This document shows, in pieces, positions 37,059 through 46,592 of a stretch of DNA of 64,000 bases. Position 1 is the stretch's first letter. Every line of letters starts with the position of its first letter. The stretch is from Oscillospiraceae bacterium (GTDB taxonomy: Bacteria; Bacteroidota; Bacteroidia; Bacteroidales; Bacteroidaceae), in NCBI GenBank assembly GCA_963610435.1, contig CAVDNW010000001.1, positions 47,105 to 111,104 on the forward strand, read 5' to 3'. Below the pieces are notes generated by a model. That model did not search any database and was not told the DNA's origin. It saw only the letters and a list, made by a program, of their open reading frames with translations. Made by a program: the position numbers and the translations under genes.

Positions 37059-40000
37059 ATGAAAGAAAATTATTACTCTCAACAGCGCTTCTCGCCGCCT
37101 CACGTGGCCAGGGGCAAGCAATGTCTGAGCACACCGCCTTGGCGACGTGGGCTTTTGGCTTTACTGCTGCTGGTCATGGCGCTGTCTGTGCCGCAGCTGA
37201 CCATTGCGTCCGATTATTTCGGCAACTCAACCAACGGAAGCATCACCCATCAGCCCACCGTCGACGAACCGTGGATAACGGTGTATTTCTGGTTCTACGA
37301 CGAGAACGGTCACGACGGCTATTTCCTCCACGATGAAACTGAGTCGGGGCATAACGGCCCGGCCGTATATGTAGACGGGCAGTACGTTTGTTCGCCCGAC
37401 TGGGAACTGGCTTGGCCTGCAAACAACGGCAATGCCGATGGTCTCGACGACGAGCGTGGTGCCAACGGCTGGTGGGGCAGCACCTATACCAAGAGCGGCA
37501 ACTACGGTGTGAACTATACTGTGCGCTTTTGGGACCCGCGCAAGTCGGGCAGCAAGTATCTGGTGGAGATGGTGGTCTATATGGACAAGATGGCAGTGAA
37601 AGCCCAGCACAAAGTGACGATACGCGGCAAGTGGCGTATCAACGAAGAGTACAAAGGCTTTCAGGAACGCACGTTCACGACCAATGCCCTACGCGACATT
37701 TTCGATACGACGCACCAAGGCGTGCGGTCTGAATACGGACAATACAAGATAAGCTCCGGTCTGCTCAACACCAGTTACGGCCCTACTACCGTGGCAATGT
37801 CGTGGTCGGACGCGGCAGCTGCAGCCTGCGATCAGTCCAGAAACAAGATGTACCTTAACCCCACGACGATGGAAAAGGCGAGCGTGAAGACATACGAAAA
37901 AGGTACAAGCAGTTACACGGGGCAGACCCTTGCCTACGATGAGAATAATGGTGGCAACTTGACCGTCTACACGCAGAAGTCGATTACCGTAACGCCGACA
38001 AACCGCCCGAGCACCATTATCTATGGATGGTCGAGCGATGCCGTGGCCGACTTTTTGAGTCCCACCCGTCTCGGGGTATCGTCCGACATGTGGAAGAAGC
38101 AGGTCACCATCAGCTGGAATGCCACGGGCGAACACAAAAACGGAACGTGGACAGTGTACCGCTATCCCGAGGATCAGCCCGAGTCGAAGTTGAAAGTGGC
38201 AAGCAACTTGTCGGCCACTACCTTGAAATATACGGACGATGTGCCGGAGTACGAAACAAACTATATCTACGAGGTCCAGTTCACACCCGCCAACACCCCT
38301 GCAGGACAGGAATTGGCACGACTTTCAGCTACCGTCAGTGCCACCGTGCAGCGCTCCTTCCCCATCACCGTTACCGATGTGGTGTCCGACAAGAGCTCCG
38401 TCACCGTGAAATGGCAGTGCCCGGAGTTCAAAGGCAACGAGAACTACGCCTTCAAGCTGCTCCGCACCGAGAGCAAGAACGGTGTGCCGGGAGACGACTG
38501 GACGGAGGTGGCCACCATCAACGTCACCGACAAGGGCAAGACACAATATGAATATACTGACACGCGCGACTTGAAGCTCTGCCCAACCTATATATATAAG
38601 GTAGAGACCACGATGCTCGAGAACAAGCTCTTCTCAAGCACCAACATCCTGGAAGGACGCATCACCGGCAACTCACAGGTGACGGCAGTCAGCGCCACCA
38701 AGGGTGACTACAACGGACTGGTGAAGGTGTCGTGGGAGGCTGACCAGGTGGGCGCCGACGTTACGCGCTACGAGGTGGCCCGCCGTGTGAAGGGAACCGA
38801 CACATGGGCCACCATCTATAAGACCAGCGGCACCGCCACTTCGTATTATTATGAGGACCAGACCGCCCTTCCCGGGCAGTACTACGACTACAAAGTGGTG
38901 AGCATCACCACCTGCGACGGCAGCGACACACGGCTTGAGAAGAGTGACGACGGATTTAGCCGCGCCACCGGCATCGTGTCGGGGCGCATCACCTACGGCA
39001 CTGGTACCGCTGTGGCTGGCACGCGCGTGGCTTTGGTTCGTGGTGACGGCACCCAGCAGCAGGCTGGCCAATTCTATGCCTTACGCGTATCGGGAGCCGG
39101 CGACGGCGTGTTCCTTGGCAAGGACAGCGAGACCCTCAACAAGTATTTCGCCTCCAAGCCCTACACCCTGCAGATGATGGTGCGCCCCGATGACTCGCAG
39201 ACGGGCACCACGCCAACCATCCTCGACCTCGGCGGCAAGATACAGCTGGCCCTTGATTCGGCCGATACCAGTGGTAAGGGCTATCCGCTCACTGTGAAGA
39301 GCGCATCCGCTTCGGCCTCTACGGGCATCTATCTGAAGCCTAACGCCTTCACGTCGCTCACCCTTGCCGTAGATGCAAACGGTGCTGCCACCGTGACGGC
39401 CGTCAACGCTGACGATTCTGTTACCGTCGTGTCACTCGCCGACAAGCTCAACGCCAAGGTGCAGTTTGCCGATGCCGACGACACCGGATTGTGTCTCGGC
39501 GGCAGCTACCAGTCGTCGGCCAATCGTGCCTTCATGGGTTATGTCGATGAGATGCGCGTGTTCAGCGACAAGGCATTGAGTCGTGAGGAGATACTTGCCA
39601 ATTACAACCATACCCTTTGCGGAACAGAAGACGCTCTCGTGGCCTACTGGCCCGTAGACGAAGGGTTTGAGGGGCAGACCACAGCCTACGACTACTCGAA
39701 GACGAGTGGGGTGGCCAACGGAAACCATGCCCAACTCGGTGCCGGCACGTATCCCACGGGCAGTATCATCCCCACATCGCACCAGCTTGGCCTGTTTGCC
39801 CTGACCGATACCCAAGGCAACTTCGTCATCCGTGGCGTGCCGTTCACGGGCGAAGGCACCAACTATATGGTTATCCCCGCCTTGGGGGTGCACGAGTTCT
39901 CGCCCACCTATTCCACGCGCTATGTCAGTGCCTCGTCGCTCGTGCATAGCGGAGTCGACTTCACCGACGTGTCGTCGTTCCCCGTGTCGGGCACCGTCTT

Positions 40001-46592: not shown

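Follow-up and report, generated by a model that had tools for sequence, protein, structure and literature searches.

A giant Bacteroidales protein of a widespread family, with a predicted short type IX sorting tail and an uncharacterised core module

Introduction

Two described systems lie closest to the protein reported here. GhpA, the grappling-hook protein of Aureispira, is a 5898-residue substrate of the type IX system of secretion (T9SS) with an adhesive hook at the N-terminus, an Ig-like stem and a sorting domain at the C-terminus (CTD), and it is a heptamer (bioRxiv 10.1101/2024.01.29.577165). Prevotella intermedia carries 48 short CTDs (40–51 residues) beside 32 long ones, with cleavage verified by mass spectrometry; strands 1–3 of the short CTDs are the equivalents of strands 3, 6 and 7 of the long ones, and the large cargo proteins with short CTDs include Fn3-containing putative adhesins (PMC11969387). 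The subject of this paper is the largest gene in a window of 64,000 nucleotides, by which we mean the whole stretch of DNA analysed (contig CAVDNW010000001.1 of assembly GCA_963610435.1, positions 47,105–111,104, forward strand). It encodes a protein of 3177 residues, called the giant protein below. Its homologues show that it belongs to a large and conserved family. We consider it probable that it acts as a regulated, T9SS-exported and surface-anchored adhesin-like appendage with a variable N-terminal head. At its centre lies a module of about 400 residues that, in our searches, is found only in this family.

Results

The giant gene and its family

As a preliminary description of the window had stated, the gene is a single intact open reading frame (ORF), by far the largest present; the runner-up encodes 1188 residues.

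37059..46592, + strand: giant ORF, 3177 residues, 347 kDa, isoelectric point 4.8, ATG start, intact

The ATG and the bases that precede it are kept across eight orthologous loci in an alignment of the upstream regions, and the GC content is the same as that of the surroundings. The ratio of non-synonymous to synonymous substitution rates (dN/dS, Nei–Gojobori) against eight orthologues is 0.03–0.15 across most regions, so the ORF is a functional gene under purifying selection. Contigs from metatranscriptome-type runs match scattered conserved parts of the gene (window positions 38559–46225) at 93–96% identity. Two of these fragmentary contigs (X34 and X36) are labelled as pig gut and a third (X25) has no label; they are most likely transcripts of related alleles. 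For the upstream regulator gene and the promoter region, described below, no coverage by metatranscriptome contigs was seen.

Searching with the core alone retrieves 1609 representatives of clusters formed at 50% identity, 880 of them at E ≤ 1e-30. Nearly all 1609 are 3100–3500 residues long and hold the core at the same relative position. In an alignment of 121 full-length representatives, the conserved part spans residues 550–3100 approximately, and the first 500 residues can scarcely be aligned. A scan of one genome per GTDB species gave 439 matching stretches, in Prevotella, Hallella faecis (83% identity), Segatella copri, Prevotellamassilia, Muribaculaceae, Paludibacteraceae as well as many rumen Bacteroidales. 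Cultivable carriers include H. faecis CLA-AA-H145, Prevotella sp. 885 and Prevotellamassilia timonensis. Two or three paralogues occur in several genomes, at times in tandem, and metagenomes contain hundreds of nearly identical alleles. Marine Cytophagales carry homologues on large secondary replicons, collinear with residues ~545–3120 of the giant protein at 25–29% identity. The NCBI Prokaryotic Genome Annotation Pipeline labels these marine proteins 'LamG-like jellyroll fold domain-containing protein', and the one close relative with a name is a 'hypothetical protein [uncultured Prevotella sp.]'. No paper describing the family was found in the literature. The preliminary description had called the protein a mosaic. 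This term does not hold, since the architecture of residues ~545–3120 is collinear across the family and the sole mosaicism is allelic recombination between orthologues; as a member of a conserved family, the protein is more ordinary than the word implies. Neither megablast nor tblastn against phage genomes matched the giant protein or its gene, so there is no phage link.

The C-terminal tail

The protein ends in a predicted sorting domain.

46419..46589, + strand: short T9SS CTD (predicted), residues 3121–3177, with motifs B (WFDVNGIML), D (PGVYV) and E (RRKVVVR)

The motif definitions are those of PMC11969387. The C-terminus had been described beforehand as Por_Secre_tail-like, and the absence of a match of a CTD hidden Markov model (HMM) to the last 80 residues had been named as evidence against export. 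Such a match is indeed absent: PF18962 (Pfam) and all NCBIfam models, TIGR04183 among them, miss the whole protein and its last 120 residues, even at E ≤ 10. The tail is of the short type instead, and a test by the standard CTD HMM is invalid for Prevotellaceae; P. intermedia has short CTDs that were verified by mass spectrometry.

T9SS export is supported by other routes. Of 15 diverse orthologues, 6 have a Por_Secre_tail by Pfam at this position (best E 6e-9), and the tail that follows the last conserved module is interchangeable between family members, being either short or canonical. Among the tails of 122 sequences, 66 are 35–62 residues long, mostly of the form TGI...YDLSGRK...GVYI...KK, and 46 are 70–110 residues long, mostly with the canonical YPNP...GVY...K. 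An HMM was built from 54 short tails of other members, with the giant protein excluded. Run against the 277 ORFs of the window, it matches residues 3123–3161 of the giant protein (E 1.5e-7) and the very end of an unrelated glycosidase at 9091–11931 (− strand; E 2e-6). In related loci it picks out dozens of ORFs from outside the family. Every one of these matches is at the extreme C-terminus. Compared as profiles by hhalign, the short tails are homologous to the long ones (94%, E 1e-7). From these matches and this homology we conclude, at the level of sequence comparison, that the tail of the giant protein is a Prevotella-type short T9SS sorting domain. Cleavage is predicted near N3127/G3128, leaving a CTD of about 50 residues, and the protein would be secreted by the T9SS.

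Further tails were noted during this work. A third kind, present in ~8% of the representatives, is ~42–45 residues long (TGI....RNGILYI.RNGK.Y...G..V), has no YDLSGR-type motif B and occupies the position of the short or long CTD; carriers are P0174, P0182, P0229, P0245, P0260, P0269, P0272, P0283 and P0286. It may be another variant of the T9SS signal or a different sorting signal. Elsewhere in the window, a Glyco_hydro_cc-like glycosidase of 933 residues (9091–11892, − strand) ends in a short T9SS-type tail, ...AVYTINGILTGKNLDELPSGIYIVRENGYTRKVMKK, for which Pfam makes no call and which the short-tail HMM matches at E 2e-6. A GH127 β-L-arabinofuranosidase of 1065 residues (14744–17941, + strand) ends in another such tail, ...RGINIVHGRKFLEN, likewise with no Pfam call and matched weakly by the short-tail HMM (E 0.07). 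The T9SS cargo of this genome is probably under-annotated.

Modular organisation

The regions on either side of the core are made up of the following parts.

37059..37211, + strand: putative Sec-type signal peptide by eye, residues 1–51, long n-region, h-region GLLALLLLVMALSV, likely cleavage TIA/SD
37212..38063, + strand: aromatic-rich N-terminal head domain, residues 52–335, lineage-specific and fast-evolving
38064..38954, + strand: three Fn3-like modules, residues 336–432, 433–537 and 538–632 (family profile, hhalign)
38964..39923, + strand: LamG1, residues 669–900, within a split CarboxypepD_reg-like sandwich, residues 636–668 and 901–955 (hhalign, PDB profiles)
39924..40193, + strand: CarboxypepD_reg-like sandwich 2, residues 956–1045, the family's most conserved stretch
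43314..44603, + strand: LamG2, residues 2086–2290, and LamG3, residues 2291–2515 (Laminin_G_3, PDB profiles, hhalign)
44604..45212, + strand: β-sandwich, residues 2516–2625, then a BACON-like module, residues 2626–2718 (BACON_2 in 2 of 15 relatives and sequence pattern)
45213..45563, + strand: modA (VFVDDECRG module), residues 2719–2835 (hhalign)
45564..46073, + strand: tandem GWNW modules, residues 2836–2925 and 2926–3005 (hhalign 99.2%, E 9e-20)
46116..46418, + strand: modB (VFVADECRA module), residues 3020–3120, CarboxypepD_reg-like (Pfam 28.6 bits, sub-threshold; hhalign)

Module detection required scans of segments, of relatives and of family profiles. A Pfam scan of the whole protein gave nothing above threshold and missed even Laminin_G_3, and NCBIfam gave no match. 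Self-BLAST of the protein found no internal repeats; these surfaced by profile–profile comparison.

The N-terminus noted earlier as signal-like has, by inspection, the look of a signal peptide, with the pair RR, a hydrophobic core of 14 residues and the sequence TIA/SD. The Trp/Tyr-rich domain that follows exists as described, with the qualification that it is specific to the lineage: its identity to family representatives is 6–15%, it is 58% identical among orthologues that share 81–84% overall, and it has no match in Pfam or NCBIfam. The three Fn3-like modules (residues ~336–632) stand. The family profile matches titin Fn3 at E 1e-10 in a profile search of the PDB, and internal comparison by hhalign pairs the second module with the third at 96% and the first with the third at 89%; on the giant protein alone, Pfam fn3 (PF00041) reaches 16.4 bits, below the gathering threshold of 25 bits. 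Conservation becomes high from the third Fn3 module (residue ~550), and the collinear match with the marine homologues starts at residue ~545.

The assignment of one plus two LamG modules is well founded. Laminin_G_3 (PF13385) scores 83.1 bits over two stretches when the segment of residues 2115–2647 is scanned alone, exceeding the gathering threshold of 27.6 bits, and it is present in 15 of 15 relatives. All three modules are mutually homologous by hhalign at 98–99.6%, with LamG1 and LamG3 at 99.6%, and the PDB profile matches of the region are to LamG/pentraxin folds. The two sandwich halves that flank LamG1 match sandwich 2 at 66% and 83% (hhalign), and one more CarboxypepD_reg-like copy thus appears to be split around LamG1. 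Sandwich 2 itself is 51–57% identical family-wide and 98% identical among close orthologues. CarboxypepD_reg (PF13620) is sub-threshold in the giant protein, with 21.8 bits at residues 976–1034 and 28.6 bits at residues 3043–3102 against a gathering threshold of 32.3 bits; 12 of 15 relatives have it at E ≤ 0.01 (best 7e-10), which agrees with the sandwiches described earlier. The VFVDDECRG and VFVADECRA modules are true repeats (hhalign 99.4%, E 8e-22). Three parts were absent from the preliminary description: the GWNW pair (residues 2836–3005), the BACON-like module, whose label is weak, and the long-hairpin module of the core.

The alternative reading as an enzyme scaffold finds no support. 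Neither the giant protein, where HExxH, CxEQ and GDSL are absent, nor the 15 relatives revealed a catalytic domain or motif, and an enzyme was rejected on this ground. A non-catalytic role in nutrition is another matter. The protein might be a very large surface binder of glycans that keeps dietary or host polysaccharide close to the cell for glycosidases, as the three LamG (concanavalin-like), BACON-like and CarboxypepD_reg-like modules would allow; attachment to cells would then be secondary. The hosts are polysaccharide-degrading gut and rumen Bacteroidales, T9SS-tailed glycosidases occur in the window (the glycoside hydrolase at 9091–11892 and the GH127 at 14744–17941), and AraC-type regulators, one of which is encoded upstream, commonly sense sugars. 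However, no SusC/SusD pair or glycosidase is found in conserved synteny, and the fast evolution of the head and of the hairpins described below better fits an arms race or partner specificity than a fixed polysaccharide. We therefore regard glycan capture as rather improbable.

The central core

The preliminary description had left about 1000 residues without a recognised motif, and this holds: the core (residues 1046–2100) has no match in Pfam, NCBIfam, PHROGs or the PDB sequences, phmmer and family profiles included. For 54 core sequences there were zero PDB matches at E ≤ 10, and Pfam returned noise only. AlphaFold2 run on residues 1040–2140 without an alignment was uninformative, with a predicted local distance difference test score (pLDDT) of 31.7. 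With an alignment of 31 diverse sequences the mean pLDDT rose to 81.1, and the model divides the core as follows.

40194..41078, + strand: two predicted β-sandwich domains, residues 1046–1340, pLDDT about 85–90, no Pfam or PDB match
41079..42458, + strand: core module, residues 1341–1800, with family-invariant motifs
41361..41612, + strand: long hairpin 1, residues 1435–1518, predicted strands of 40 and 38 residues
42195..42404, + strand: long hairpin 2, residues 1713–1782, predicted strands of 34 and 34 residues, similar in character to hairpin 1
42459..43313, + strand: predicted β-sandwich domains, residues 1801–2085, weak Fn3-like Pfam match at residues 1985–2049

The invariant motifs of the core module are GNNFVT.GPD, LRDPPG..S, ISTS..VGA.GDVFIG, NE..KV and TRGGQTS.PYEGE. 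Hairpin 1 has Ser/Thr-rich flanks, an amphipathic distal half (residues 1460–1497) and a hydrophobic tip punctuated by glycines. The modelled module also contains a further hairpin (21 + 22 residues) and two long helices.

Foldseek searches with the whole model against PDB and BFVD gave generic tandem-sandwich matches only, at a template modelling (TM) score of about 0.1, including C3 and alpha-2-macroglobulin as well as Ig proteins of cilia and Ig-repeat proteins of phages. At this score and with such generic chains, the fold of the core module is unclassified. Since A2ML1, Escherichia coli alpha-2-macroglobulin, CD109 and C3 were among the top matches (E 1e-8 to 1e-11), a protective role like that of alpha-2-macroglobulin or complement, as a trap for proteases or a coat on the surface, was weighed. 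The TM score speaks against it, as the matches are chains of sandwiches to which ciliary and phage Ig-repeat proteins score alike; the giant protein lacks the CxEQ thioester motif, and no A2M or MG Pfam match occurs in the 15 relatives. This reading is already largely refuted, and we hold it to be highly improbable.

Diversification of the hairpins and the head

The two hairpins combine fixed geometry with variable sequence. Of 122 sequences, 87 have a hairpin 1 of 85–86 residues and 97 a hairpin 2 of 71 residues, whereas the helical linker that separates the two varies from 59 to 118 residues. In the distal halves, a period-2 alternation of hydrophobic and polar residues is conserved across the family, the tips are hydrophobic and their glycines are near-invariant. 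The flanks are rich in serine and threonine, 29% together vs 17% overall. Among 40 orthologues that are 81–84% identical overall, the core body is 91–99% identical, hairpin 1 62%, next to flanking core at 99%, and hairpin 2 60%; the head and the CTD are each at 58%. Where dS is unsaturated, dN/dS of hairpin 1 is 0.53–1.07, vs 0.00–0.11 in the flanking core. In the other pairwise comparisons of hairpins, dN and dS are both high, which indicates exchange of divergent alleles. The closest orthologue differs by segment: L008 and L012 for the head, L002, L004 and L005 for the hairpins and L001 for the C-terminal third. This pattern, read from the aligned sequences, suggests that alleles or paralogues have often undergone homologous recombination.

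Hairpins of this kind raise the question of a β-barrel pore former. The giant protein would then be a cytolysin or bacteriocin delivered by the T9SS, tethered or released, in which the LamG modules and the head bind the target and the hairpins of several protomers form the barrel. Two hairpins of 70–85 residues with alternating hydrophobic and polar distal halves, hydrophobic Gly-punctuated tips and Ser/Thr-rich flanks would suit such a protein. Their length is fixed despite low identity, as expected if strands register in an oligomeric barrel, and AlphaFold models them as outstretched arms whose tips have lower confidence. Secreted pore formers of the MACPF- and CDC-like kinds are known from Bacteroidales. 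On the other side, models for MACPF, CDC, aerolysin/ETX-MTX2, Binary_toxB and leukocidin are unmatched by the giant protein and 54 relatives, and CEL_III_C comes up in just 2 of 54 members, with an E of 0.04 that is no more than noise. There is no pore former among the top Foldseek matches of the multi-domain model, and no immunity-like gene adjoins the giant gene in the window. The variable end is N-terminal, unlike in polymorphic toxins, the cassette-like exchange of hairpins (dN and dS both high) is more typical of exposed epitopes, and the alternating pattern is expected of any sheet with one buried face. On balance we judge a pore former unlikely.

The upstream region

The preliminary description had placed an AraC-type gene upstream, co-oriented with the giant gene and possibly controlling it. 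The region contains the following features.

35182..36345, + strand: AraC-family regulator, 387 residues, C-terminal HTH_18/HTH_AraC (Pfam HTH_18, 47.9 bits)
36346..36850, no strand: additional intergenic DNA (~500 nt) that holds hairpin-forming repeats, outside the conserved control region
36895..36920, + strand: palindrome GGTTACA-N12-TGTAACC, candidate operator, 3' end ~42 nt upstream of the −7 box
36962..36969, + strand: Bacteroidetes −7 element TAAATTTG (TAnnTTTG), 90 nt upstream of the ATG

The N-terminal half of the regulator consists of multi-span hydrophobic segments through residues 1–231. Orthologues of the regulator occupy the same upstream position in seven close loci. Across the family, a gene with an AraC helix–turn–helix domain lies ≤1.5 kb upstream of the giant gene in 24 of the 55 loci with enough flanking sequence, co-oriented in 21. 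These genes carry two types of sensor, one membrane-embedded (~380 residues) and one longer (~570–630 residues, in one case TPR-like by eye).

The palindrome is unique in the window, where zero chance matches are expected. It recurs at the equivalent position in L001, L003, L005, L008, L010 and L012 and lies inside an invariant block of the eight-locus alignment. The block TTCGTTTAAATTTGC, which contains TAnnTTTG, is kept in all eight orthologous upstream regions; we take TAnnTTTG to be the −7 element from general knowledge of Bacteroidetes sigma-A promoters, to which a scan for the sigma-70 consensus is inapplicable. The conserved palindrome and −7 box indicate that the giant gene is served by a promoter of its own and a likely operator. 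An operon with the AraC gene was rejected, because this promoter is the giant gene's own and is conserved. The link to the AraC regulator proposed earlier has comparative support from the synteny, the palindrome and the −7 box, and the AraC protein would, as we infer from this layout, control the giant gene.

The extra intergenic DNA has no counterpart in the aligned orthologues, in which the whole spacer is 115–234 nt in five of seven loci. It holds two copies of ACGGTCTATCG and a 32-nt imperfect inverted repeat at 36558–36646. An Rfam scan of the window found no family for it and nothing else of relevance. The insertion of a small element or a hairpin in RNA could account for it.

Neighbouring genes

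Downstream of the giant gene, the cluster at 46809–54442 encodes a DNA/RNA non-specific endonuclease (46809–47795, − strand), a lipoprotein of 485 residues, a protein with DUF5689, a putative receptor of the outer membrane (851 residues, assigned by position, no Pfam match) and an Exo_endo_phos_3 protein (53147–54442, + strand), which is a nuclease of the phosphatase family. It is syntenic in close relatives only and looks like a locus for scavenging extracellular nucleic acids; its genes look unrelated to the giant gene. A polymorphic toxin or Rhs-type effector was considered and rejected: the C-terminal third of the giant protein is conserved and ends in a CTD, its variability is N-terminal, and the downstream gene is a convergent nuclease, with no immunity gene.

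Many loci of rumen Prevotellaceae and marine Cytophagales have a follower gene whose start is only a few bases from the stop codon of the giant gene and which encodes a CTD-bearing protein (320–730 residues). Several of these proteins, both marine ones included, hold one to three copies of modA. Such followers are found, among others, at these positions.

L031, 9916–11151: CTD-bearing follower
L050, 15690–16718: CTD-bearing follower
L027, 15614–16813: CTD-bearing follower
L066, 17839–18990: CTD-bearing follower
L076, 17490–19670: CTD-bearing follower
L077, 13045–16008: CTD-bearing follower

A PorP/SprF gene comes after the CTD-bearing partner in the Chondrinema locus, a phage-tail-collar-like gene lies upstream in the marine loci, and the marine homologues adjoin genes with type-A or type-B CTDs. 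The window has no CTD-bearing modA partner, PorP/SprF gene or phage-tail-collar-like gene. The only recurrent neighbours of the giant gene are AraC genes, its paralogues and the small modA-bearing CTD protein. In a rumen Prevotella metagenome-assembled genome (L019), each of two tandem giant paralogues is followed by an ORF of 206 residues with a type I dockerin (55 bits; 2717–3337 and 15500–16120). Dockerins are unusual in Bacteroidota. Apart from these, ORF 14145–14627 (+ strand, 160 residues) of the window matches DUF6443 sub-threshold, at 25.3 bits against a cut-off of 27.8.

Discussion

The data are most consistent with an exported appendage built as follows. Sec would take the protein across the inner membrane, and the T9SS, recognising the Prevotella-type short CTD, would take it across the outer membrane. 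Like other type-A cargo, the protein would then lose its CTD and be linked to the cell surface through the new C-terminus. The conserved C-terminal two-thirds would then lie near the cell, with the fast-evolving head at the distal tip. The shaft would consist of the ~20 β-rich modules whose domains are seen in the sequence (Fn3, LamG, CarboxypepD_reg-like, BACON-like, modA/modB and GWNW), a chain typical of a glycan- or cell-binding adhesin fibre, and an adhesin role is plausible. From the middle of the protein, the core module is predicted to project the two amphipathic Ser/Thr-rich β-hairpins of fixed length, whose observed variation makes them a second hot spot of diversification. They may be exposed interaction or assembly arms, which would contact a partner or ligand or, as in GhpA, mediate lateral oligomerisation into a fibre. 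Transcription would start from the gene's own Bacteroidetes-type promoter, probably switched at the palindrome by the membrane-embedded AraC-type sensor.

Several observations weigh against this picture. The tail escapes the standard sorting-domain models, its cleavage-region motif VNGV departs from the usual (P)TGI, and a T9SS machinery gene was not found within the window. Control by the AraC protein is argued from position only, and 31 of the 55 loci are without an AraC gene within 1.5 kb upstream. The distal halves of the hairpins are modelled at pLDDT 51–65 only, structure comparison returns generic sandwich chains, and amphipathic hairpins with Ser/Thr flanks suit a pore-forming toxin equally well as an assembly arm. 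Transcript support is weak, as the fragmentary pig-gut contigs at 93–96% identity are probably from relatives.

A bolder proposal, which we put forward tentatively and with low confidence, is that the core is a new oligomerising β-hairpin machine. The hairpins of several protomers would form a long barrel, either as a pore (a contact-dependent tethered cytolysin or bacteriocin) or as a hollow collar holding the protomers together in a fibre. Target specificity would be set by the hypervariable hairpin residues and the head, and dedicated AraC-type sensors would time deployment. If the hairpins do form a pore or an assembly collar, the mechanism would be new among T9SS substrates.

Prevotella, Segatella and Hallella rank with the most abundant bacteria of gut and rumen, and their surface biology is almost unknown. 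The family is widespread (>1600 clusters at 50% identity), often with two or three paralogues in one genome. Each copy takes up 9.5 kb, and purifying selection on it is strong, yet the members carry generic names ('hypothetical', 'LamG-like'). Because standard annotation misses the short T9SS tail, lists of T9SS cargo in Prevotellaceae are likely undercounts. The two diversifying hairpins of fixed length in a conserved core offer a target for work on adhesion, assembly or pores, and the predicted dedicated regulator and operator make the gene experimentally approachable.

Comparison with known systems

Giant T9SS surface proteins are a kind already known; what is uncharacterised here is the core module. 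By analogy, GhpA is the closest architectural precedent. Like GhpA and SprB, the giant protein would be a giant T9SS substrate with a distal adhesive or variable N-terminal head, an Ig-like chain and a C-terminal sorting domain, and its marine relatives adjoin PorP/SprF-type genes, as in the GhpA/SprB-type setting. GhpA and SprB have tens of near-identical Ig repeats, whereas the giant protein has ~20 different modules and a unique 400-residue core, and its hosts, unlike theirs, are non-gliding gut anaerobes. The likeness to GhpA is one of architecture; no sequence similarity turned up, and no direct comparison was made.

With the short-CTD cargo of P. intermedia (PMC11969387) the giant protein shares a likely signal peptide and a tail of ~50 residues that standard HMMs miss. 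The tails have in common motif B (aromatic-x-x-x-G and a basic residue), motif D (GxY followed by I or V) and motif E (basic residues before the end) (PMC11969387). The giant protein differs in having VNGV rather than (P)TGI and in its unrelated passenger of 3100 residues.

As in β-pore-formers (aerolysin/ETX-MTX2, MACPF/CDC and the BSAPs of Bacteroidales), the amphipathic hairpins of the giant protein are flanked by Ser/Thr and keep their pattern and length but not their sequence, and there are two per protomer, as in MACPF/CDC. In contrast to these proteins, the module has no match to them in sequence or fold and sits midway in a 347-kDa predicted surface protein.

True homologues with the same core are, for example, the marine proteins of Flammeovirga kamogawensis (WP_144077269.1) and Chondrinema litorale (WP_284688220.1), which align over residues ~545–3120 at 25–29% identity. 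Unlike the giant protein, they bear canonical type-A CTDs, are without the Prevotella-type N-terminal 540 residues and share their operons with a phage-tail-collar-like gene and the gene of a CTD protein that bears modA.

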